Positions 15,440 through 48,765 of a stretch of DNA of 64,000 nucleotides are shown one piece after another; the first letter of the stretch is position 1; each line of letters starts with the position of its first letter. The notes under the pieces are model-generated. The model did not search any database and was not told where the DNA came from. It saw only the letters and a list, made by a program, of their open reading frames with translations. Position numbers and translations under genes: made by a program. Source of the stretch: an uncultured Methanosarcinaceae archaeon (GTDB lineage: Archaea > Halobacteriota > Methanosarcinia > Methanosarcinales > Methanosarcinaceae); NCBI GenBank assembly GCA_963721455.1, contig CAVRJG010000038.1:1-64000 (forward strand), written 5' to 3'.

Positions 15440-15806
15440 ATAGTAGAAAATAAGAGTAATATCTAAAATTCCCTGGCACTTATTCATAAACAAAATATCA
15501 GTTGTAAGAGCAACTCTCACGATTGCCATTAGAACTGCAAATCAGGACTGCCGGTCAGGGAGTATTTGTATATTTGTAGCTTATGATGGGCACGGACGAT
15601 TTTTTTCCCTTCTTTTTTCCATTTTTCTATCTGAACTTTCGCCTTTTGTTTTGATTTCTCCTTTTGTTTTGATTATTTCTGAAGCTTTTCATGCGTTTTC
15701 TCTTCAGTTTTTTCTCTTCATTTTCACTACATGGTTTTTACAGTCTAATGGTTCCTGCCATCTAAGCCTTTATACCCGTCGAAACCATATTTTCTATTGA
15801 TCTTCC

Positions 15807-16262
15807 ATGCTTGAAGAATATGAGAAAAAGAGACAATTTAAGAAGACTCCTGAGCCGTCAGCCAGTGATTTCAAAACAAGCTCCGACAAACCTATTTTTG
15901 TGGTTCAGCGCCATGACGCGCGGAATCTCCATTATGATTTTCGCCTGGAGATGGATGGGGTCCTTAAAAGCTGGGCTGTGCCCAAGCAGCCGCCAAAAGA
16001 GGCAGGCATCAGAAGGCTTGCTATCCAGACCGAAGACCATCCTCTTGCGTACGCTTATTTTGAGGGAGAAATACCGGCCGGAGAGTATGGAGCCGGCAAG
16101 GTTGAGATCTGGGATAGGGGAACTTTTCGGCTTCTGAAACGTGAGGAAAAAGAGATTGTTGTGACACTTGAAGGAGAAGAATTGAAAGGGGATTATGTTT
16201 TAATCAGGACAAAGTATGGAGAAGGAGAAAAAGGATGGCTCTTCTTTAAAAGGGCCGACTGA
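15807..16262 (+). CDS. Stand-alone LigD 3'-phosphoesterase (PE) domain protein
   Basis: FVVQRH, HYDFRLE, LKSWAVPK, TEDHPLAY, FEGEIP and YGAGKVEIWDRG motifs. Confidence 0.93.
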   Translation: MLEEYEKKRQFKKTPEPSASDFKTSSDKPIFVVQRHDARNLHYDFRLEMDGVLKSWAVPKQPPKEAGIRRLAIQTEDHPLAYAYFEGEIPAGEYGAGKVEIWDRGTFRLLKREEKEIVVTLEGEELKGDYVLIRTKYGEGEKGWLFFKRAD

Positions 16263-34855: not shown

Positions 34856-35328
34856 TTTCTGACACCCCAGTTAAAAATTGATCCGGATGCGGCTCTAAAG
34901 AACCTGGATCGGATTCAAAAATACATTTGGCAAAGTTAAGTATTGTTTCTCTTCAAAAGGGCATATACTTTTAGGAACAAATGTTTAGAAAAAAAGGTTC
35001 GTGAATAGCTTTAAAATGGAACTTATCCAAAAATTCATTTCGTTCTTAATTATTTTGGACTTACGCAGTTAAACAAAACAACTTTTAAATATTTATTCAA
35101 CTTATTTATTATGGGGTGTATCCAAAAATTCGAAGTTTGCCTCTTTGAATTTTGCATTTAATAATTAATCGGGTTTTTGATCAGGAAAAATTCTATAAAT
35201 TTTCAATGAATGAAAATATAGTGGGTTTCAGCTGGTCTGAGTCTCTTTACTTTCGGACTCACGCAGTTAAACTGGGAAACCGGTGGCATAGGCTTCAAAC
35301 TATCAAAATTATATATTTATAATGAGGG

Positions 35329-35961: not shown

Positions 35962-36184
35962 TTAAGTGGTAACTATTTAGCCTGAGAAAAGCAACCTCAA
36001 TAAATTTTTTGTAGCCATCTTTCTTAAGATGACTATTGACAACGTTTTTTCAGTATCTATTGCACGCAGATAGCTGAAGGCGTGTGACACGCAAGGCATA
36101 TCCACTATGTATTCCTCTCTATTTAGACCGTTATTTTCATGTATCTTATCTCCGACATAAAGTCCAATAAATCCATGTTAGATA

Positions 36185-36325
36185 GGACTTAAGCAGTTGA
36201 ACTGAGGAACCAGTAGCATTAAATTCAACCTGCTGATAATCTACGGATGATAGAGCTGTTGAATCGAAGGTTAAAAATCTGTTTTCTTAAACTTACACAC
36301 GTTCCTGTTGTTTTGTGCATGATAC
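36185..36325 (+). repeat. Degenerate duplicate of the MITE-derived leader and first codons of the 36823 gene
   Basis: Aligns with ~36759-36912 (GATAATCTACGG-TGATAGAG-TGTTGAATCGAA, GTTCCTGTTGTTTTGTGCATGA). Confidence 0.8.
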
Positions 36326-36822
36326 TCGCACTACGTAACTATTTATAGTAAGTTTAAAGTAGTTATACTAAAGTAAAAACGTAAAAAAATTTTACAGTCT
36401 AAGTTCCTCCTTTTTTAAGCACATAAGTGTTTCCTGATATCAAATTGTGTGCTTAAACTTACGCGCATGAACTACATGTTCTAATTTCAAAATCACAATC
36501 ATCTGACATTGAAACAATAAGGGCAATGAAACTTGAAGGTAAATCCACTGAGGATATTGAAACAAAGGTTTCAAGGAAAAGAAAGCTGAATCCTTAAATG
36601 TTTGCTTATCTCCTGACCAGGGGAACTCCTGCCTGAATTCGAGAGGGTAAGATCTGCCATTAGGTGCTTTACTGGAGATTAAACCGCCAGAGAGATATTG
36701 AATCTTTCAAGAGTCCATCTTTGTGATCTAATCTCCAGTTTAAATCTGAGACTTTTTTAGGATTTGCGCAGTTGAATTGAGAGACCGGTAAAATGTGAAT
36801 TCAAGCTGCAGATAATCTACGG

Positions 36823-39048
36823 GTGATAGAGTTGTTGAATCGAATGTTAAAAATCTTTTTTTTTACAGGCTTCTTTATACTTACATGCGTTCCTGTTGTT
36901 TTGTGCATGACACCTGCACCAATAGTCTACGTTGCGGGAGATGGCAGTGGTGATTTCAACTGTTCTGGAGATAACGATCAAGTACAAATTAACGAGGCCC
37001 TTACATATGTTGCCGAAAACTTCGAATATACAACGGTCTACCTCAAGGGACCTTTCACATACGTCATAGACGATACTCTTCAGATTGGTGGCAACACAAT
37101 CCTTGAAGGAGACTCCACTGCTGTGATCAAATTGGCTGATCATGCGGGCTGGCCGAAAGAAAAACCTATAATTAAACAAATGGACAGCGTCGGAAACCAG
37201 GATATTATTATACGCGGTTTTACTATTGATGGAAACCGAGAAGAAAATACCAATGTAATAAGCGGAGGAGGCTACTACAATCTTATTCACTTGAGCGATT
37301 GCCAGAACATAAGTGTGTATAATATGTATCTGACCAATAACCACGGAGACGGCTTAAAGACTGACAATTGTTCTAACGTAAAATCCTATAATAATACGGC
37401 ATACTCATTAGGGCATGATGCTCTATATGCCATTGCCTGTTCAAATGTGGAAGCCTATAACAACACAATAACCTGTAGAACGAATAGTGGCCTGAGATTA
37501 TATAACACAAACCATGCAAGTTTCTACAATAACACTATTACCTCCGAAAATTCCGGAGGTGCAGGAATTGAAATCCAGAAGGACGGATCGTATTCCACAA
37601 TGGATGATATTGAGGTATACAATAACGTAATATACAACACTGCGCTTTCAGGAATTTTGGTTTTCGGATCAGAAAATTATTCCACGTCCTCAGCAAATGT
37701 CCACATCCACCATAACCAGATCTATGATACTGGAACTGGTTCAAGCAGCGAATTTATAGGTGGAATCTTATCCTATGGGTTCAATGGGCTCATTGAGAAC
37801 AACGTGATTGATGGGGCATACGGGGCTGGTATTGTGCAAAATAAGGCATATTATTCGTCTCCGGAGGGTTCAGGGTATTTGATTACGGTAAAAAATAACA
37901 TAATAACGAATACTCGCGCATCAGCAGCCGGAGGGAAAGGGTATGGAATATGTAACCTGCTTACAGACACACACTCTTTTGTCCTGCAGAACAACTCTTT
38001 CTATAACAACGCAGGTGGCGACTATATAGGCGTTGAGCCATCACCTTCGGATATAGTAGCAGACCCTCAATACGCAGATAGGGATAAACACGACTATCAC
38101 CTGAAGTCAAAAGCAGGTCGCTGGGACGGAAACAGTTGGGTAAATGACAATATAAGTTCCCCATGCATCGATGCAGGAGATCCTTTATCGGATTATTCTA
38201 ACGAACCGGAACCCAACGGAGACAGGATCAACATAGGTCTGGATGGAAATACAAGGTATGCCTCAAAATCAGAATTTGATGTGTCATACAATAGTAGTGG
38301 AAACAGTAGCAGTGACAGCAGTGGCAGCAGTGGAGGAAGCAGCCACATCAGCAGTGGTGGTGTCGGCTCTCCCGAACCTGCAAGAAACGTTGAGACTAAG
38401 GAACTTTCACAGGTATTCATTACAAACGACAAAAATATAACGTTTGATTTCGCAAAGAATGCAACCTGTGTTGTTTATGTGAATTTTGATGCAAAAAAGA
38501 CAGTTGGTAAGACAACAGCCATTGTAGAGATGCTGAAAAATAAATCTACTCTGGTTTCAGACCTACCTTCAGGCGAGGTATATAAATCCTTTAATCTCTG
38601 GGTTGGAAACGGTGGATATGGGACCTCAAATAATATAGAAAATCCGGTCGTATGTTTCAAGGTTGAAAAATCCTGGATACAGGAAAAGAATATCAATAAT
38701 TCTTCTATCACCCTGAACAGGTACAATGATACAGAATGGGATCCGCTTTCAACCAACCTGTCAGGGGAAGATGGCGCGTACCTCTATTTCACAGCCAAAA
38801 CCCCTGGATTCTCTCCCTTTGCAATAACAGGTAAGATTAAAGCAAAAGTAACTGTGGCTGAAATACTGCCTGAACCTGACCCTCAGGATCTTGAACAAAA
38901 CGGAAGTATAAAATCAGAAATTGAAAATAAGCCTGAGCAGACAGGAAACACAAGTACTCCTCAGAAAGAAAACGTAAGTATGCCTGGATTTGAAATAGCT
39001 TCTGGGATCGTCTGTCTGCTTGGCGTATTCTTGTACAAAAGAAGATAA
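36823..39048 (+). CDS. Cell-surface right-handed beta-helix protein (disaggregatase-related type) with PGF-pre-PGF domain and PGF-CTERM sorting signal
   Basis: Signal peptide, YVAGDGSGDFNC, beta-helix repeats, Ser/Gly linker, TPGFSPFAI, and MPGF-TM-KRR C-terminus. Confidence 0.9.
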   Translation: MIELLNRMLKIFFFTGFFILTCVPVVLCMTPAPIVYVAGDGSGDFNCSGDNDQVQINEALTYVAENFEYTTVYLKGPFTYVIDDTLQIGGNTILEGDSTAVIKLADHAGWPKEKPIIKQMDSVGNQDIIIRGFTIDGNREENTNVISGGGYYNLIHLSDCQNISVYNMYLTNNHGDGLKTDNCSNVKSYNNTAYSLGHDALYAIACSNVEAYNNTITCRTNSGLRLYNTNHASFYNNTITSENSGGAGIEIQKDGSYSTMDDIEVYNNVIYNTALSGILVFGSENYSTSSANVHIHHNQIYDTGTGSSSEFIGGILSYGFNGLIENNVIDGAYGAGIVQNKAYYSSPEGSGYLITVKNNIITNTRASAAGGKGYGICNLLTDTHSFVLQNNSFYNNAGGDYIGVEPSPSDIVADPQYADRDKHDYHLKSKAGRWDGNSWVNDNISSPCIDAGDPLSDYSNEPEPNGDRINIGLDGNTRYASKSEFDVSYNSSGNSSSDSSGSSGGSSHISSGGVGSPEPARNVETKELSQVFITNDKNITFDFAKNATCVVYVNFDAKKTVGKTTAIVEMLKNKSTLVSDLPSGEVYKSFNLWVGNGGYGTSNNIENPVVCFKVEKSWIQEKNINNSSITLNRYNDTEWDPLSTNLSGEDGAYLYFTAKTPGFSPFAITGKIKAKVTVAEILPEPDPQDLEQNGSIKSEIENKPEQTGNTSTPQKENVSMPGFEIASGIVCLLGVFLYKRR

Positions 39049-39134: not shown

Positions 39135-39290
39135 AAAGTCTCTTTTTATGGAGATAAACAGACTACCTGGAGGTCTATCTTACTCTTGAAAGCTGGAGAG
39201 TTAAGCCCTTACCTGACAGAAAAAACCAAAAAACTTGATTTTGTTAGCCCTGAATTTGGGGTTCAGAGGGCTGATTCTCAAGAAATATAA
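39135..39290 (+). pseudogene. Fragment 1 of a putative CRISPR-independent Cas1 C-terminal region
   Basis: YGDKQTTWRSILLLKAGELSPYLTEKTKKLDFVSPEFGVQRADSQEI*, overlapping fragment 3 in sequence. Family assignment is from recall and needs BLASTX. Confidence 0.55.
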
Positions 39291-39410
39291 AGTATTTCTT
39301 CCTTTGATTTTAGTTATTGTTGCCCTAAATTTAATTTAAATAAAAATTTTTAATAATAAATTTCAAAAGAATTTATTTTTTCAACTTTTCTGTTTTTCTG
39401 ATCACTCTAT

Positions 39411-39476
39411 CTATGTTTTTCCGAACTCAGTTATTCTACATCATGTAGGAATACAGAGAAAGCGACCGATTACCGT
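39411..39476. repeat. Conserved non-coding motif with a palindromic core (TTCTACATCATGTAGGA), copy 1
   Basis: Second copy at 46011..46079. Both end in GACCGATTACCGT. Confidence 0.7.
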
Positions 39477-39499
39477 ACTATGAAACAGCTTTTTATTAT

Positions 39500-39630
39500 G
39501 AGCTGATCCCAAAACTCAAAATTTCTTCTCTGAATCTCGTATTCGGAATAATCAATCAAGGTTTCTGATCATGAAAATTATTTCTGAAACTCTTAATGAT
39601 TGAGAATAAAATTGGTTTTGGGATGAGCTT
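39500..39630. mobile_element. MITE of the same family as 4627..6304
   Basis: GAGCTGATCCCAAAA ... TTTTGGGATGAGCT termini and a colinear interior. Confidence 0.8.
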
Positions 39631-39850
39631 TATCATTGTCAAAAATTGCTTGTTCCCCTTCGTTTGAGTTCAAATTTGAAGTTTGATTCAGGGTGTTAAA
39701 CTTTATCATCTGAAAATTAGCTCCTCTAATGTCTGCTCCTGTCATGTTTGCTTTCATCAGGTAGGCTTTTTTCATTTTGGATTCTGTCATTTTGGATTCC
39801 ATCATTTTGGCTCCAGCCAGGTCTGCTTCCGCGAGGACGGTCTGTTTCTA
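39631..39850 (-). pseudogene. Pentapeptide-repeat protein fragment
   Basis: ADLAG AKMME SKMTE SKMKK AYLMK ANMTG ADIRG ANFQ. Confidence 0.7.
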
Positions 39851-40319
39851 TCTCCAAGTTAGAGAATAGATAATGAACACATATAATCAATGTTTAAATA
39901 TTTTAATAAATAGAAAAAAAGTTAAATATATTAACAAGAGGGGCTATTAATATTTGGGGAACTTATATAATCGAATTCAAAAAGGACTTGTGAAGGGGTT
40001 GGAGTAAACGTCTAAATGGTTAGATTTGGGTGAATGGATATCGTCCACCGTAAGGTTTTCAATCGTGGGTGTGTTTTGCGTGGTGGTGTTGATTTGGCAC
40101 TTGATTGTCTCTCTTATGCGGCTCGGGATCTCTGCTGGATCGGAGAAAATTTCAAATCGTAAGAATGATGCCGTTGAAAACAATAATAATTAAAGTATTT
40201 GCCAGTGCGTTGGAGAAAATGCGGCAGGAAGCGGGAGAGTCACTAACGAAGAGTAAGCCAGAATATAATACATAAACTATCTAATTTTTTTAATACTAAT
40301 TTGTAACCCGATGTTACTT

Positions 40320-40529
40320 TTGGGCAGGTTTAAGAAACTGAATTCGTAGAAGACCTGGAAAAAGCAAATTAAGCCTTTTAGCTGAGTCCTTGTAGGATTC
40401 CAGGCAATTGAAGAAAATGATAAGGCTGTTAAGCCTCTGGCTCCTTTTACTAAGAATTATCAGAAGATAGTCTACGAGCTATTTATTGATTCTGATACAG
40501 GTGAAATTAATTGGGGATCTCAATACTTT
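40320..40529 (+). pseudogene. Fragment A of a putative family-B DNA polymerase C-terminal region
   Basis: LGRFKKLNS*KTWKKQIKPFS*VLVGFQAIEENDKAVKPLAPFTKNYQKIVYELFIDSDTGEINWGSQYF in one frame. Assignment is from recall. Confidence 0.5.
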
Positions 40530-40530
40530 A

Positions 40531-40644
40531 GGACTTACGCGGTTGAACTGAGAAATCAATAGCATTAAACCTTCAACTGTATAAAACACTAAGCCAGTCA
40601 CAACGCCGAATGTGCTTGATTTTGTACTTCAAATGCGTAAGTCC
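40531..40644. mobile_element. 114-bp MITE with GGACTTACGC termini
   Basis: Perfect 10-bp TIR GGACTTACGC/GCGTAAGTCC with TA on both sides. Left-end relatives lie at ~35057, 35255, 36186 and 36760. Confidence 0.85.
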
Positions 40645-40646
40645 TA

Positions 40647-40943
40647 TTACATGAAGCAAAACGCCAAAAATGATAAGCCTTTCACGCTTAACAGCCATGT
40701 TTTGGAGAGGGTTAAGGCTTGGGAAAACGTGGTTTTGGGGGATCAGGCTACCTCAAAAGAAGTTTTATATACGGGCATTTTTGAACAGATAGCTACAAGA
40801 GATAAGCAGATAAGCTAGCTAAACGAAGTGACACAAAAACAGGCAGTATACATTCAGAAATTATTCCGGAGAATAGTAAACTAAACATGAAACTATTGCC
40901 GGAAATCACCGAGAATAATAAACCATGGTGGAAATTTTGGTGA
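40647..40943 (+). pseudogene. Putative Cas1 tail fragment 2 joined to a decayed coiled-coil ORF ending KPWWKFW*
   Basis: YMKQNAKNDKPFTLNSHVLERVKAWEN, a direct repeat of ~42404-42598. Confidence 0.55.
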
Positions 40944-41164
40944 TACCAAACGAATTCTTTTGAGTATTTTAACGGTCACTTTAAAGTTCATAACAAGTTC
41001 ATTTGTGATCCAAATTGAATTCACTTCTATTCTATGTTGGATTCTTGCGCTAAAAAGCAATACTTATATAATAAAAAATAAGTTTTCAAAATAACTAAGA
41101 GTATTAGAATAGATATATTCCATGTTTATATATAACGGTTAAGTTAAAAAATTACAATTCAGGA

Positions 41165-41389
41165 GTGCTTACAGTGCTCGATTGGATTTATAGTAACAAA
41201 GAATGGCTCTTTGAAGGAATAGGTGTTCTAGCTATATCAACTATTCTAAATAAATTTGTCTTCACTAAGAAAAAGCAACCATTAGACATGAAATATACCA
41301 AACAAGAGCAAAAGTCGGGCAATAATTCTACAAATATACAATCTGCTACGGATATAACATTTTTCCTGTCCTCCAAGGAGGACAAATGA
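41165..41389 (+). CDS. Small membrane protein with a C-terminal Q/N/G/S-rich motif
   Basis: DWIYSNKEWLFEGIGVLAISTIL, then QEQKSGNNSTNIQ. ATGA overlap with the next gene. Confidence 0.7.
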   Translation: MLTVLDWIYSNKEWLFEGIGVLAISTILNKFVFTKKKQPLDMKYTKQEQKSGNNSTNIQSATDITFFLSSKEDK

Positions 41390-42258
41390 TTAATGATAAG
41401 CATCAAACTGGTGGCGATGGATCTACAAATATTCAAGGAAATACTATTAATATTATTACAAATACTAATAATTTTTATACTAACGATCCAGAAGAGCAGG
41501 AAAAACCCAGCAAAGAAGCAGTCTCGCGTCCTCCAGATAACACGCCTCTAGAAGAACCAGAAAGTCATGCAAAAGAATTATTCATTGGGATAATTCTATG
41601 TCTTCTGATATTTAGCGGAGTTGTACTGATAAATGGGGCCGATTATACACCATCGGGGGTCTCACCAGCACCAGAAAATCGGATAACAAGCAATGGTGAT
41701 GGTACGACTTCACAGGTAAATACAACTGTTTCAGATCAACCACTTCCTGTTGCTGACTTTTCGGCAGATATAACATTAGGAAATGCGCCGCTAACAGTTA
41801 AGTTTACAGATATGTCTAAGAATGCAAACGAGTGGAACTGGAACTTAGGAGATAAATTCATTACAAAGGATCAAAGTCCAGAGCATACCTATACAAAAGC
41901 AGGAACTTATACTGTGGAAGAGACCGTAAGTAATGCAAAAGGTAATAGTAAAATGAATAAATTAAATTATATCACTGTTGCACCTCCTCTGCCACCTCTA
42001 GTTGCTAACTTTTCGGCAGACAAAACAGCAGGAAATGCACCACTGACAGTTAGGTTTACCGACAAGAGTGCCGGATCACCCACTAGATGGAAATGGAGTT
42101 TTGGAGATGGAAATACTTCAACCGACTGTAATCCAAAATACACCTATTCAACAGCCGGAACTTATACGGTGAAAGAAACCGTGTTTAGAGAAACCATAAG
42201 TAATCAAACTGAGAGTAAAAATGAAAGAAAAATAAATTATATCACTGTTTGGAGGTAG
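41386..42258 (+). CDS. Single-pass membrane protein with two PKD domains and an N-terminal Q/N/G/S-rich motif
   Basis: QTGGDGSTNIQ, a TM helix, and two ADFSA..GNAPLTV.FTD...W.W..GD units. Confidence 0.85.
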   Translation: MINDKHQTGGDGSTNIQGNTINIITNTNNFYTNDPEEQEKPSKEAVSRPPDNTPLEEPESHAKELFIGIILCLLIFSGVVLINGADYTPSGVSPAPENRITSNGDGTTSQVNTTVSDQPLPVADFSADITLGNAPLTVKFTDMSKNANEWNWNLGDKFITKDQSPEHTYTKAGTYTVEETVSNAKGNSKMNKLNYITVAPPLPPLVANFSADKTAGNAPLTVRFTDKSAGSPTRWKWSFGDGNTSTDCNPKYTYSTAGTYTVKETVFRETISNQTESKNERKINYITVWR

Positions 42259-42295
42259 AACACGTTCGACATTTTTAAAAATCCATTCAAGAAAA

Positions 42296-42598
42296 TTTGT
42301 TAGCCCTGAATTTGGGGTTCTGAAAGTCGATTCTCAAGAAATAAGGCAAAAGGATTTCTTATGTTGATTGGAAAAAACTAGGGTTTTCTAAGGGAACTTT
42401 ACATTACATGAAACAAAACGCCAAAAGTGATAAGCCTTTCACGCTCAACAGCCATGTTTTGGAGAGGGTTAAAGCTTGGGAAAACTTAGTTCTGGGGGTT
42501 AAGTTAACCTCTAAAGTCGGTTTATTTATAGACACTCTATGAACTGATAGCAGAAAAGACGAGCAGATAGGCAAGCTTAGTGAAGCACACAGAAGCAA
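42296..42598 (+). pseudogene. Putative Cas1 tail fragment 3 plus coiled-coil fragment
   Basis: FVSPEFGVLKVDSQEIRQK / ISYVDWKKLGFSKGTLHYMKQNAKSDKPFTLNSHVLERVKAWENLV. It bridges fragments 1, 2 and 4. Confidence 0.6.
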
Positions 42599-43059
42599 GA
42601 GATAAGATACAGGGAAAGAAGAAGGAGCCCCTGATTAAGAAGTTATGTAAAAACTGCAATAAACCCTTCTTCCCACTTTCAGCAGTAAAATTTCAGTATT
42701 TAACATTTTTACTGTTAACGATTCTCAATATAACATAAATTTATGGACTTTTGTACAGGAATTAAAGGTGGGTATGTATGAATTTAAAGACCAAAAAATG
42801 ACAGCATTCAATTTTCATCGAGTTTCATTTTGATTTTAGATTATTTTCAAATTTTCAAAAACGTTATCGAAGAAATAGTGATTTCCGAAAAAAAATACTT
42901 CGGAATGTGGGTTCTTTACAGAAAACCCGAAAAAGAAACATGTTCCTGAAGGGTTATATACTCGGATTAAAAAAGAAGCAAAAAGAGAATTGAAATATTA
43001 ATTATCCTGCTTTTTGACAACCCATTTACCATTATCTGAAACCATAATTCCAGATTCTA

Positions 43060-45833
43060 TTAACTCTTTGTATTACCTGCACTCTCAATTCCTTTAGAGT
43101 GTTCACCCAACAGTTTAGCATTCTGAGTACGCATATGGTCAGCACCTAGTTTATTTTCGAATATCTGCAGCGAGCGTTCAAATAGGGGTAAAGCATAATC
43201 GCCCTTTCCAGCACATCCGTCAATAATTCCTAGATCCAATAATGATATTGCGAAATCAACGTGATCATTTCCTAGACTTTTCCCCCGAATATCAAGTGCC
43301 TGTTGGCAAAATTCGTGAGCTTTTTCAAATTCATGTGTTTCAATATAGAGATTTCCCATGTTGTTCATAATTAATGCAACCATGGAGTGTTCCTGTCCCA
43401 GACTATTTCTAGCTGTATTTAAGGCTCTTTGATAAAATTCGAGGGCTTTCTCATAATTATCCATTATGCGATATGTAACAGCTATGTTATTTAATAAACT
43501 CACAACCTTTGAGTTTTCTGACCCTAAATGATATTCAGTTACTTGTAAAGCTCGTTGATAAGCCTCCAATGCATCATCGCATCTATGCATATATTGATAA
43601 GCAGATCCTAAATTGGCTAATGTTTCTGCAATAATTATGTGATTTTCTTCCAATTTCTCTTCTGCAATTTCAACAGCCCTTTGACAGTATTTCACCCCAT
43701 CTTCAATATTGTCCATTAGAGTACACAGCGCCCCTAAGGTGGACAGGCTTTGTGCAACTACAGGATGTTTAGGGCCAAGCTTTTTTTTGTTTATATTAAA
43801 TGCTTTTTGAGCAAGGGCAAAAGCTTCGTTATAATTACCTAATTGCTGATGAATTACTGCTAGATTTTCTGCCGTTTTAGCAACTTCGAGATCTTCTTCC
43901 CCCAAAAGAGCTTCTCGAACAATTAGAGCTTCCTGGCATAGCTCCATTGCTTTGTTATACTGACCTAAGAATTGATAAGTCATTGCCATATTTTGTTGTA
44001 CAAGTGCAAAATAAAGAGGCTCTTTGTTAACTTCATTCTGAAGTATGTAAAGTGCCTTTTGTTGCAGTGTAAGCGCTTTTTCATACTCACCAATACCCGT
44101 ATAAGAATTTGCTAAATCGTTAGATGCCATTGCAATTGCAAGGTCATCAATTACAAGGTCAACCCCTCTATATTTTTTGCCTAAATTTTTTTCATATATT
44201 TCAAGAACTTGTTGGTAATACGATATTGCTTCGTTGTATCTCCCTCTATCTTCACTTAAATAAGCTAATTTTTTCGTAAGAATTCCAACATAAGGATGTT
44301 CTGGCCCGAGCCTTTCCTTAAAAACCTCAACAAGATCGTTAAACATCGGATAAATTGTTTTCCAGTATCCAGCTTTATCAAATGTTTCGGTATATTCAAT
44401 AATCCATCCACCTAAGTCGTCGAATTCCAATACTTCTTTTGCATGATAATAAGCTTCGATTAATGCAATTTCATGTTCTTGGGTGATCGATTTTACATCG
44501 ATGTCTTTGATTTTATTACTATAGTAATTATGCAAAAATAGATGAACTTCTTTTCTATATGTCGCATCTTGATGTTCTTGAAGACTTTTCCTCATTAACT
44601 GGTGGAGTGAAAAACTATCATCCTTGACCTCTTTAATAAAAGAATATTTAATCAAGTCTGTAAATTCGCCAGATGAATAAGTTGGATTGAATTTTTTTAT
44701 CAATAATTCAAATAGATTTCGATCCCATGAATTCGGTGCTGAAAGTATATTAAGAGTTCTTTTTTCATTTTTATCAAGGTACTTCACAAACGTGTCAAAT
44801 ATCTCTTTCTTTGTACCTGCGAAGTTTTTAGCTTCGGGTTTTTTGTTCCTACTTACTTGCTCGTAAGTATCAACAGACAGGTTAAGGTAGTATGGAACTC
44901 CTTCGCTTGCTTTAACTATTACACCTCGAATGTCTTCCTCTTCTATATATTCGTTTAAGAATTGTTCACTATATTTTTCTGGTAGATCCTCTATCAGGCA
45001 CTCTTTATACACATTTTCCCAGTCTTGCTCGTCGTCTACCCAGAGTGATTTTATCTGTTCTCTCCCACATATTACCCATGAGACTCCTGGCATATTGGGA
45101 ATTAGGCATTCTCGTATCCATTTATCTTTTTCATGAAACTACCTTTTCCCCGCAGTCTGTCCCAAAGAGCTTCATAAGTATCAATAAAAATACAAGCTCT
45201 TGAATTATGCCTAAACTACCTGTAAAATCTGCAGCAAAAATACCAGGCAATTTCTTTTCGATTTCATGAGCTTCCATAGATTCAAGTTTATTTATGTCTA
45301 TAGGCAACTCTCTCAAAAATCTTCTACTTTTTCAGGGGCTTGTTTATAGTATCAACTATCCGTTTTGCAGGTATCGATCTAAAGGTCCAAATGCGGTTTC
45401 ATTAAGAGCATTTAGTACACTCGTGAAAAAACCATCTTCTTTAATCATTGGATATGTCTCTTTATTCAACGGAATATCAGGCCTACTTTTTTTTCGAAAA
45501 TATGGCATGAGCCAAGTTAAACGATAAAACCTCACATTGCGTTTTTTCTGAATTTTGTTCCTGAGTGCTATTAAAAAAGTACTCACATTTCTATGGGATC
45601 GTTTTCCAAATCCATAGATACCCAAAGCATTTCAGGGTAATCTCCGTGTTCAATATATATTGCAACTCATGTTGCAACTCGCTTTTACCAATGCCTGCTA
45701 TACCATAGTAAAATAGAGCATTATAATCTTGATTATTAGGGTTTTGAATGAAGTTTTTAAAATTATCAATGCAAGTTTCGCGATCAACAAAAACTCTTTC
45801 CTTCCTAAAATAATCAGTCGGATGAAGTGCCAT
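43060..45833 (-). pseudogene. STAND-like P-loop NTPase-TPR protein, 5' part broken by several frameshifts
   Basis: FVDRE and Walker A GIAGIGKS in 45591..45833, fragments through 45131, then GVPYYL and kinesin-light-chain-type TPRs (LGPEHP) in 43060..45093. Confidence 0.85.
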
Positions 45834-46010
45834 TTATAAAAAATCTCCACAAGCTCAATCGCCGTTTTTACCTCGGAACTTCTGATACATTTATTAGTCG
45901 ACCTATATTACATTTTGGAAATTTTTAATACATTATTATGATTATTTTGTTACAAACGGATTAATTTTTCTGATATTCGTAACTGTTTGATATTTTAGAT
46001 ATTCTACATA

Positions 46011-46079
46011 CTATGCTTTTCTAAACTTAGTTGTTCTACATCATATGGGAATACGGAAATTGTTTAGACCGATTACCGT
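46011..46079. repeat. Conserved non-coding motif, copy 2
   Basis: AACTTAGTTGTTCTACATCATATGGGAATAC...GACCGATTACCGT matches 39411..39476. Confidence 0.7.
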
Positions 46080-46223
46080 CCAATTAAACACAAAAACAGA
46101 TTACGAAATTTGTATTAAGCCTCAAAATAAGCCTGTTGATATCTTTTTTACTGCGTTTAATTTTTGTTCCATTTACTCAAAATATTGAATCTAAGTTTAT
46201 TGTGCTATTGGGATTTATGAATA

Positions 46224-46489
46224 AAATACATTCAGGCTACTGGTCTGATTTACATTGGAAAGGAAGCAAATAATATTGAGGAATAGCCTTTGGATGTAAC
46301 TAGACCATAGATTTCCATTAATGTGGAAGAGATTAAGTAGAATATTTTGCTGTTAAGCCCTGAAGAAGCCAGAAAAATAGGACTCAAGTACGAAGTGCTT
46401 TAGCTTATTTGAAGAAAAAAGCAAAGAAAGGAATATTAAATTTAAATACCAAAAATATGAGGAAAGTTCTGAAGTATTATTACTCTTGA
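46224..46489 (+). pseudogene. Fragment B (extreme C-terminus) of the putative family-B DNA polymerase
   Basis: KYIQATGLIYIGKEANNIEE*PLDVTRP*ISINVEEIK*NILLLSPEEARKIGLK / RSALAYLKKKAKKG. Assignment is from recall. Confidence 0.5.
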
Positions 46490-46582
46490 ACGTGTGAATA
46501 TAAGCCAATATTATTAATTCTGATGCATGAAGCTGGTTTATTGACTAGCTTCATGAATGAGTTATGGGAAAATTTAGGTTCT

Positions 46583-46642
46583 GAGTTAAACAGCATCCGA
46601 GTTAAACAACAACTAAGCTAAACAATACCAAGTTAAACAACC
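46583..46642. repeat. Four RAGYTAAACA direct repeats at 15-16-bp spacing
   Basis: Read directly. Followed at 46643-46681 by KKLGFSRGSLHL (fragment 4). Confidence 0.7.
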
Positions 46643-46730
46643 AAAAAATTAGGGTTTTCTAGAGGTTCTTTGCATTTGATAACCTTATCACAGAATATTT
46701 TTTTGATTTTTCTGTGTTTTATTCGTTTTC

Positions 46731-48180
46731 TTAGATATTGTCCAATCTTTTATCTTCCGAAAATAGCATTTCATAATTGATCGCTAATATTAGCCTGTAT
46801 GCGTTATTTAGCCTTATATTTTTAAATTTTCTCCAAAACCCCCCTGAATAATAAAGATACATACCAATAACTAAAAGAACAAAGTTTTCTACCATGTTAT
46901 TATTTATCTCATTTGTTTGTAACCACATTATTAACATAATAATACCGAATATAATTGGAATGGCTCCATACAATATATTCGCTACTTCTATGATTTTGTA
47001 TCCATATTTTTGTTTTACTATTTGAGTTCCCTAATGACAGGATTAGTGCATAGAAGGTGACCAAAATATACGCGATTACAATACCGGCACCTAGTCTTGT
47101 AATAATATCGAAAGGAATTATTTTTGATGTAATTATAGACTCCAAGTTGGAGGACATTGGTGGTGTTAAAATCGAAAAATTAAGCCAGTATAAAGAAAAA
47201 GATTTGTAGGATCTAAAAAATGGGAGTATCTATCAACCCAAATCCCGTTAAAATATTGGTGTGAGTTGAAGACAAATCTTGATGTATATCATTTACTAGT
47301 TGGTTTGCACAAACCAGCATAAATTGAAGTTCTTTTTCTCTATAATTTTTGAGGTCTAACTCTTTACTATTTAAAATGGAACCATAAATTTTATCGTGTA
47401 ATTGATATGGACTTGGCTCAATACGAATTTCTTTATATAGTAAGTTATTTTCATATTTAGATATTTTATAAAGAAAATAATTTTCAGGCGTAGCCTTAGT
47501 CATATTTTTTTCTGTTTGAATTGGAATTAAGCCAATTATTTACCCAGTCAAAATAAGGTATTATACTTACCGCGAATACTATTATAATTAATAAAGGTAG
47601 CCATTCTAAAGCATGATGAAAACTATTGACAAACACATCAATGAGAAGAAAACAACCTAAAATAATAAGAAAAATTAGGGGATATCTGATTGTTTCTTTT
47701 TTTGCTATTTTGGAGGTTATTTTGACAATAGTTGTGAAAAATAAAAGACTGAGATACTAAGTAGACACTGCCATAAAAGGACAAAAAGAAAGAAATATGA
47801 GAATCGGAGGAAATATAGAAAGTAGTTGAAATTAAAAAAAGTATAAGTGAAATTAAAAATCCTTTGGCATATTTATAATCATAACCTCTATCCTCAATTC
47901 GAAATAAAAAGAATAGAATTACAAGCGCAGATAAAAAACTAAAATAGCTTAACGCGATCTCCAATATAGACTCAAATGATGAGGGGTTTCTTAAGATTAA
48001 ATCTATAGAAAAAATCAACAAATATGAGAATATCCATTTGGCGAAGGAGTTAAATGTATAAGAATTTTTGTAAATTTTAAACCACCCATAGTAAACTGAA
48101 AGAAAGAACGGCTAAAACACCTATAATCAAAACTAAGTACACAGCTAACATGATTTCAGTAGGAATTCCGGTTTCCACAA
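46731..48180 (-). pseudogene. Fragmented, very AT-rich multi-pass membrane protein gene(s)
   Basis: Four consecutive hydrophobic ORF pieces in different frames. Confidence 0.5.
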
Positions 48181-48347
48181 TATCCTCTTTTAAAATATTG
48201 TATTCTTGGTTAATAGTATGGAAAAACAAGGCGTTCTATATAAACATTTTTAAATATTATTATAAATATATTAAGGATGTGAGATGAATATCAGTTTTTA
48301 ATTTCAATTTTTTAAGTTAGTTATTTTTTCAATAGATCAATATAAAA

Positions 48348-48582
48348 CCTACTTTCGGCAGGTAACTTGTATTTTTCACAATATATTTACTGCTAGCGTT
48401 TTTGCTGGAAAACACATATTGTCTGATACCAAACGTTATTGCAAAATTGGTTCATTGTTCATATATGTCGTGAGATTTGGGTTATACGTTAACCAGTTAC
48501 AAACCCAATATATATTTGCATAATGTTTGAAAAACGCCATCAGTAAAAATTTAATATCTAATGTCGACCTGCCGAATGTAGG
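48348..48582. mobile_element. 235-bp fold-back, MITE-like element
   Basis: Termini CCTACTTTCGGCAGGT / ACCTGCCGAATGTAGG (15/16), plus nested internal inverted arms. Confidence 0.7.
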
Positions 48583-48742
48583 ATAAAAGAGAAATCTGAG
48601 TTCTTTTGTCAAGTCAATTGTCGTTTGTCGAAAAAGAGTTTACTTATTTTTTGGTTAGGGCAGCTTTTGGAAAAAACAGTGCTGTGGATATTTATCAGTT
48701 GCGTACACTTTATTTGAGATCCCTATTATTCCTCCCTACAAG

Positions 48743-48765
48743 TGCGAGGGGTAGGATTCGAACCT
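48743..48765 (-). other. Isolated tRNA 3'-end fragment (probably tRNA-Leu), att-like
   Basis: AGGTTCGAATCCTACCCCTCGCA forms a T-arm, 3' acceptor strand and discriminator. The 5' half is absent. Confidence 0.75.

Follow-up and report, generated by a model that had tools for sequence, protein, structure and literature searches.

The described elements closest to the DNA reported here are the family-2 casposons of Methanosarcina (MetMaz-C1 type, casposase structure 6OPM), which carry a Cas1 casposase with a C-terminal helix-turn-helix (HTH) tail and a family-B DNA polymerase (PolB). The accessible portions of Krupovic et al. 2016 (PMC4779613) describe tandem insertion of casposons, inactivated copies, solo terminal inverted repeats (TIRs), a tRNA-Leu target and cargo genes with TPR and pentapeptide repeats, and for the Methanosarcina elements they give a 14-nt target led by CGCA. 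The 64,000-nt stretch that we analysed (the window), part of contig CAVRJG010000038.1 of a Methanosarcina-like archaeon, contains an island of ~9.6 kb at 39135-48765 that is very probably what is left of at least three family-2 casposons, which entered one after another at a tRNA-Leu-like target and then decayed. No piece of the island is functional as a transposon.

The island shares with family-2 casposons the HTH tail of Cas1, the family-B polymerase, the TIR tip motif, the 14-nt CGCA-led target, the tRNA-Leu(-like) site and the TPR and pentapeptide cargo, but none of its genes is intact, and what survives is 3' gene ends with a single TIR and a single copy of the target. In internally deleted DNA transposons and in 5'-truncated copies of long interspersed nuclear elements, too, the ends survive, the enzyme core is lost and the cut points vary. 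Unlike these, the island keeps only its target-side end, and it implies no reverse-transcription step. The tandem and inactivated casposons in the accessible portions of PMC4779613 are similar in that one target is reused, older copies decay and relics outnumber complete elements; those portions show solo TIRs and copies with a broken polB, whereas here we see co-oriented, 5'-truncated ends without internal TIRs. Tyrosine-integrase islands (such as MetMaz1FA1A3-E1 in the same portions of PMC4779613) also have a tRNA-Leu 3' fragment at their border and stack at the tRNA, but the present island has no integrase, no paired att repeats and a casposon TIR at its border. It is likewise unlike an integron-like cassette array, as its cut points vary, the ends of homology vary by subfamily and there is no integrase. 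No description of arrays of co-oriented cas1 and polB 3' relics was found in the literature searched, which included the accessible portions of PMC4779613 and PMC10359463.

Casposase and polymerase gene ends beside a single TIR

Raw fragments of the island, three queries each against Pfam and NCBIfam, matched no family, so identification required full-length relatives. We used the intact 407-aa Cas1 and 913-aa PolB of a casposon in genome G110 as tblastn queries against the window, and a closer Cas1 from public data (P0001, 408 aa, full-length, Pfam PF01867) as a second reference; homologues were sought in 121 genomes of the same family. These comparisons bear out the earlier proposal, made from the letters of the window, that the fragments come from a CRISPR-independent Cas1 and its adjacent family-B polymerase, as do the Pfam and 6OPM matches of the intact relative, and translation reproduced the peptides quoted for all six stretches named then. 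All Cas1 and PolB fragments of the island lie on the plus strand (Table 1).

Table 1. Features of the island, in window coordinates (aa, amino acids; ORF, open reading frame; MITE, miniature inverted-repeat transposable element)
Feature	Position	Strand	Basis
Cas1 3' relic T1	39135-39287	+	tblastn, aa 302-351 of G110 Cas1; ends at stop codon
Repeat X1, non-coding casposon-arm sequence	39411-39487		direct repeats D11, D13, 83-88%
Pentapeptide-repeat ORF fragment, 70 aa, cargo relic	39596-39805	-	Pfam PF00805, E=2.5e-5
PolB relic, left half	40269-40532	+	tblastn, PolB aa 699-786; in-frame stops
MITE-like inverted-repeat element, 118 bp, 38-nt arms	40529-40646		inverted repeat I1
Cas1 3' relic T2	40645-40749	+	tblastn, 40645-40734 = aa 374-403 of G110 Cas1
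Cargo: 74-aa ORF and 290-aa PKD-domain protein	41165-42258	+	Pfam PKD_4, E=2e-28
Cas1 3' relic T3	42296-42507	+	tblastn, 42296-42352 and 42354-42491 = aa 336-403 of G110 Cas1
Second MITE-like repeat, ~240 bp	42671-42913		many sites in many genomes of the genus, 72-88%
NTPase-TPR cargo gene, at least 4 ORFs	43060-45833	-	Pfam TPR_12, E=3e-77; weak AAA_16
Repeat X2, arm sequence, second copy of X	46011-46090		direct repeats
PolB C-terminal relic, right half	46224-46483	+	tblastn, 46224-46391 and 46430-46483 = PolB aa 813-900
Hairpin (9-bp stem) and ~3.5 tandem 16-nt repeats, non-coding	46526-46647		alignment
Possible Cas1-tail relic T4, 13 aa	46643-46681	+	82% over 34 nt to 42372-42405 in T3 (D19)
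Five small ORFs, 50-127 aa	46731-48229	-	0 of 5 with a Pfam match
Casposon TIR, tip at 48732	48686-48732	-	blastn to G110 TIR; tip motif; nhmmer profile
Target-site copy, 14 nt	48733-48746	-	tRNA strand reads CGCA and 10 further nt
tRNA-Leu-like 3' fragment, 22 nt	48743-48764	-	T-loop, 3' half of T stem, acceptor 3' strand

Three of the four overlapping, co-oriented tails of the preliminary description are Cas1 3' ends. Against P0001, T1 has 74% identity (aa 303-349), T2 84% (aa 372-403) and T3, which has a frameshift near 42352, 84% and 96% (aa 334-352 and 356-403). T2 and T3 share 87% nucleotide identity across 126 nt (direct repeat D1), and T2 is fused to repeat-element sequence. The fourth tail, T4, is insecure: it gave no tblastn match to G110 Cas1 in the window, and its single 34-nt similarity and its position at the edge of the non-coding hairpin-plus-repeat block leave it unproven. 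The tails derive from a Cas1 subfamily that is sister to the M. mazei type (~75% identity). Where homology between tails stops varies with the subfamily, either right at the stop codon or 40-140 nt farther on. T1 and T2 may be a single tail split by an insertion, by comparison with genome G023, where the same 118-bp element sits inside one continuous Cas1 tail, although T1 is nearer to cas1 of the intact locus L047 (87% nucleotide identity) than T2 is (79%).

The tail at 42345-42539 matched 86 of the 121 genomes. Among the 150 matches listed (427 more were unlisted), 38 are the C-terminus of open frames of 399-420 aa, typically ~5 kb from long frames (~880-913 aa) on the opposite strand. Frames of that longer size (~880-913 aa) are also the best matches of a 196-aa frame on the organism's own contig C9, which overlaps the 40320-40529 fragment and matched 48 of the 121 genomes. 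In intact relatives the 913-aa PolB (PF00136) adjoins cas1; the island has fragments only. The Pfam search of the 25 neighbouring ORFs (26-60 kb) returned no cas gene family, and no CRISPR-like array was found at 30-56 kb. Judged by sequence, the three tails are 3' ends of a casposon Cas1 that lies outside any CRISPR-cas operon, its gene being broken.

Both further coding fragments of the preliminary description (40320-40529 and 46224-46489) belong to PolB itself and match the casposon polB 3' end by tblastn. The left relic (40269-40532) has 77% nucleotide identity to polB of L047 and stops at the first base of the 118-bp element. Since the L047 sequences matching 40317-40530 and the right half lie 36 nt apart, and both are ~77% identical, the two pieces are one polB 3' end that has been split. 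The 5.65-kb block that divides it (40531-46181) starts exactly with the 118-bp element and contains T2, the PKD gene, T3, the 240-bp repeat, the broken NTPase-TPR gene and X2. As a separate observation, the C-terminal tail of casposon PolB is homologous to the HTH tail of Cas1 (41% over 49 aa, E=2e-9; L025 9867-10100 vs 15600-15890).

A casposon TIR lies at the right border of the island. The preliminary description reported that no casposon TIRs were present, and here the sequence says otherwise: a 15-nt tip motif with 3 mismatches lies at 48718-48732, and an nhmmer profile of 19 TIRs finds 48686-48732 with E=3e-6, its sole match in 36-50 kb at E<=10, so that no second TIR was found there. 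The tip motif by itself matches the window 8 times at up to 3 mismatches, against 7.8 expected, and only the match at 48718-48732 is real. A single TIR fits a relic and not a complete element. The 14 nt that separate the TIR tip from the tRNA-like acceptor end are the CGCA-led copy, whose partner was not found. The island does end, as first described, at a tRNA 3' fragment: 48742-48765 (minus strand) matches the tRNA-Leu 3' end of a related genome at 95.8% over 24 nt, and the 22-nt piece has one difference from the 3' end of the organism's own tRNA-Leu(taa). ARAGORN called no tRNA at the fragment, and the window has no tRNA-Leu gene. A tRNA-Leu 3' probe gave one match only in 38-50 kb, and paired att repeats at both borders were not found.

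The intact relatives are standard casposons. The G110 proteins match Pfam Cas_Cas1 (E=1.2e-66) and DNA_pol_B (E=2.7e-8), and G110 Cas1 aligns over its whole length with the M. mazei casposase structure 6OPM (E=2.2e-258), to which Cas1 of the intact relatives is ~93% identical. These relatives have TIRs of 45-60 nt, a PolB and a CGCA-led target duplication at tRNA-Leu, the site also represented beside the island TIR. The G110 element has 62-nt inverted repeats at its ends (89% complementary), with a tRNA-like 3' end and a repeated 12-14-nt CGCA-led target on one side and a solo TIR on the other. Among the intact relatives, TIR pairs delimited seven (L025, L026, L027, L028, L038, L048 and L049), and the target sequence was repeated in each of the five whose flanks were inspected (L025, L026, L027, L028 and L038). 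All seven are laid out as TIR, arm, cas1 on one strand, an HTH-HEAT gene, a 213-aa gene, polB on the other strand, arm and TIR. Both insertion orientations occur: in L025 it is the polB arm that faces the tRNA-like flank, whereas in L046, L066 and L096 it is the cas1 arm that faces outward, to tRNA-Leu in the first two and to the end TIR in the third.

A comparison of L025 with L026 bears on the earlier suggestion that the cas1 3' end is a recurrent point of cargo exchange. The two share 89.7% identity over a core that opens 106 nt after the cas1 stop and closes ~100 nt short of the polB stop; both arms are unrelated. The sharp change past cas1 is thus real, but an equal change occurs at polB; because gene content changes at both genes and PolB relics are 3'-biased too, the cas1 3' end is not special. 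Three further features of these loci were seen. The polB-side arm of the G110 casposon carries a reverse-transcriptase gene as cargo (L025 16098-17696; PF00078, E=9e-15), a cargo already listed for Methanosarcina casposons in the accessible portions of PMC4779613. Two TIR tips stand head to head in L039 (~1199-1250) without target sequence between them. M. mazei-type casposons have 2-4 tandem units of ~42 nt, each with a 13-nt palindrome, from the cas1 stop onward, in copy numbers that differ between loci L025 (9760-9825), L026, L019, L022 and L023.

Relic polarity in related genomes

A related block in G023 consists of a Cas1 tail interrupted by the 118-bp element, three more co-oriented tails, an NTPase-TPR gene 86% identical to that of the window, repeat X, a truncated TIR, a full TIR and, beyond the CGCA target, a piece resembling tRNA-Leu. 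The block is flanked by other sequence than in the window, and X lies ~100 nt inside the truncated TIR. Two arrays in G023 have 4-5 Cas1 tails each, facing one terminal TIR beside tRNA-Leu or a tRNA-Leu-like piece, and L060 has three Cas1 relics and then a TIR. The relics point at a single terminal TIR in four delimited arrays. Full copies of cas1 or polB were not found in the window's own genome by DNA and protein searches, which returned pieces only, on contigs C9, C63, C45 and C42. Contig C63 holds three more co-oriented tails, an insertion and the NTPase N-terminus with X; from a reading of its translation we take the insertion to be an IS630-like insertion sequence. At 69239-70456 of C45, an insert of 1.06 kb separates the two parts of a Cas1 tail (aa 327-360 and 377-396); it holds a 294-aa minus-strand ORF, putatively ParB-like as its translation reads.

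The same bias holds beyond single loci. Whole Cas1 and PolB queries were run on five related genomes. Cas1 gave 119 matches, 6 near full length and 113 fragments; 91 of the fragments reach their end within the final 10% of the protein, and 9 are confined to its first 60%. The mean match depth is 74 over aa 351-400 and 7.9 over aa 1-100. PolB gave 40 matches, 4 of them full length, and its 3' bias is weaker than that of Cas1 (20 of the 36 fragments end in the last 10%). With one CRISPR-type Cas1 match dropped and pieces up to 600 bp apart merged, neighbouring relics no more than 5 kb apart shared a strand in 36 cases and differed in strand in 11 (binomial p=3.5e-4). In intact elements cas1 and polB are divergent, yet their relic tails often run in one direction, which is consistent with elements inserting either way round and keeping just the arm next to the target.

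How the array may have formed

Serial integration and decay of a casposon-like family, as first proposed, fits the relic stack, the TIR and the tRNA-Leu-like target of this locus. All cas1 3' ends of the island point towards the target. The element nearest to it keeps its target-side arm, with the polB 3' end, the hairpin-plus-repeat block, small ORFs, the TIR and the CGCA-led copy; farther out lie T3 and then the NTPase-TPR gene, T2 and then a small ORF and the PKD gene, and T1 and then X1. We infer that each new casposon was placed by its casposase, either way round, at the copy of the target on the tRNA side. Later deletions would have taken out the core genes and the far arm, together with the TIR-target-TIR junction at which the newcomer met its older neighbour head to head. 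The target-side arm would be left, with the 3' end of the core gene (cas1 or polB) that happened to face the target. Several rounds of these events would give a one-directional array of 5'-truncated tails with cargo between them and a single closing TIR, which small repeat elements, an insertion sequence elsewhere and recombination may then have scrambled. In G023 an inner TIR that is truncated precedes a complete outer one, which indicates that a deletion crossed such a junction and supports the deletion step.

Several observations weigh against serial insertion and decay. No second TIR, target or internal tRNA-like piece lies at the relic borders, so we infer the number of insertions; a degenerate TIR candidate at ~46140-46175 aligned weakly and was not relied on. 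Repeated large deletions are needed, each ending in the last third of the target-side gene and sparing the older arm, while six intact head-to-head TIR-target-TIR junctions in related loci indicate that their loss is not rapid. The composite of tails, NTPase-TPR gene and X stands in different flanks in the window, C63 and G023, which simple decay in place does not predict. The loci are related and clustered and come from related genomes, so that the p value above overstates their independence. The assembly, at 98.5% completeness, is in 73 contigs, so an unassembled intact casposon is possible. A search for a relative with an empty site found none, the left and right flanks matching different contigs or distant places in other genomes.

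The shared composites would be explained if the tails had already been inside one large casposon arm while it was still mobile. Two tandem casposons would have fused by internal deletion, and at each such event the arm would have gained cargo and retained a cas1 tail to mark the fusion. On this view the island is what remains of one or two composite elements that have since died. L038, in which a full-length cas1 is followed ~670 nt downstream on the same strand by a further Cas1 tail and a PolB-like tail, speaks for this. However, the L038 element carrying the extra tail has lost polB, the seven delimited intact casposons have no additional Cas1 or PolB tail between their TIRs and core genes, and the three composites are not collinear, which makes this origin unlikely. 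One-ended insertion would also account for the 3' bias, for 5' cut points that vary, for units that all face the target and for the absence of far-end TIRs and of target copies between them. Here the casposase would join only the TIR-bearing end of an incomplete copy, comprising the arm and the beginning of the core gene nearest that end, to the tRNA-side target, the ragged end being joined by host repair. Units would thus be added in a polar fashion beside a leader-like tRNA end, much like CRISPR spacers, and in one G023 array Cas1 identity falls and stop load rises with distance from tRNA-Leu. Casposases integrate varied DNA ends in vitro, according to the accessible portions of PMC6977970 and PMC7786333, which counts for such insertion. 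Each unit should, however, retain a target-side TIR of its own, and only the last unit of each array has one; the junction with the truncated inner TIR in G023 resembles a deletion. We regard one-ended insertion as very improbable for the island, and think it distinctly doubtful that the arrays in general are a record of polar growth, in which partial copies, each an arm with its TIR and a gene tail, were added one-ended at a tRNA end that resembles a leader. If they were, polar addition would be a transposon-level forerunner of polarised spacer acquisition, and the hairpin-and-iteron blocks beside cas1 and polB would mark copying stops or recombination sites.

The preliminary description raised, as an alternative, a separate class of Cas1/PolB elements mobilised by an integrase of the tyrosine type, for which cas1 3' ends would serve as attachment or cassette-exchange sites. 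Co-oriented, repeated cas1 3' ends with cargo between them do resemble direct att repeats, and integrase elements of M. mazei, too, use tRNA-Leu (accessible portions of PMC4779613). But no integrase family was found in Pfam searches of the 25 ORFs between 26 and 60 kb, nor in the four ORFs that separate tRNA-Leu from its fragment in G023. The tail cut points differ (aa 303, 334 and 372), so there is no fixed cas1 site, and with a casposon TIR and CGCA target present and TIR-paired standard casposons as intact relatives this class is hardly credible. Retention of the tails for a function, as small HTH proteins that damp the casposase or as DNA sites bound by it, is suggested by the over-representation of precisely the DNA-binding tail and by the many relics elsewhere without an internal stop. 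In the island, however, T1 terminates at a stop codon, T3 carries a frameshift and T2 is joined to sequence of the repeat element; T2 is shared with G023 at 79% DNA identity, near the adjacent non-coding element (75%) and below the NTPase-TPR gene (86%), and PolB relics show the same 3' bias. A function for the tails is extremely unlikely.

Cargo, repeats and the fate of casposon arms

Pfam matches (PF00805, PKD_4 and TPR_12) agree with the first reading of pentapeptide, PKD and NTPase-TPR cargo between the gene ends. The five small ORFs at 46731-48229, described at first as membrane cargo, gave no such match. The PKD protein occupies 41386-42255 (plus strand), its stop 38 nt ahead of T3. The NTPase-TPR gene comprises a TPR ORF at 43063-45093 (minus strand) and an N-terminal piece with a weak AAA_16 match at 45594-45833; it has 83-89% nucleotide identity to four other genomes, and its N-terminal part is repeated on C63 at 92%. 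Elsewhere in the organism's own genome, 32 other places match the left end of the 118-bp element, and partial copies lie in the window at 35253-35293, 36183-36223 and 36758-36798; within the Cas1 tail of G023 its right-hand junction is identical to that of the window. Outside the island, the leader and first codons of a disaggregatase-related surface-protein gene (36798-36919) are duplicated 576-588 nt upstream (36222-36331) at 87-90%.

The hairpin and tandem repeats, which Tandem Repeats Finder places at 46587-46641 with a period of 16, form a conserved block directly downstream of polB, with 3-5 repeat copies (L047 4769-4907, 2238-2397 and 11639-11714). The 16-nt repeat block also occurs ~430 nt downstream of cas1 in opposite orientation, and so brackets the core genes of this subfamily. 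From its sequence and placement, the block may be a protein-binding or replication site. No description of repeat blocks beside cas1 and polB was found in the literature searched, as far as its accessible portions extend.

The island is a real relic of a known element type, and the proposal of a new, integrase-driven class is corrected accordingly. Short stretches without ORFs in an otherwise unannotated island of ~10 kb can now be read as casposon gene tails, and the cargo genes of the island reached the chromosome as casposon arms. The one-directional polarity is modestly interesting, and poses a testable question of how casposons are inactivated or inserted at tRNA-Leu. That the relics are mostly 3' ends, that neighbours are co-oriented and that one TIR closes each delimited array suggests that casposon target sites act as accretion points, at which arms with their cargo outlive the transposition machinery.

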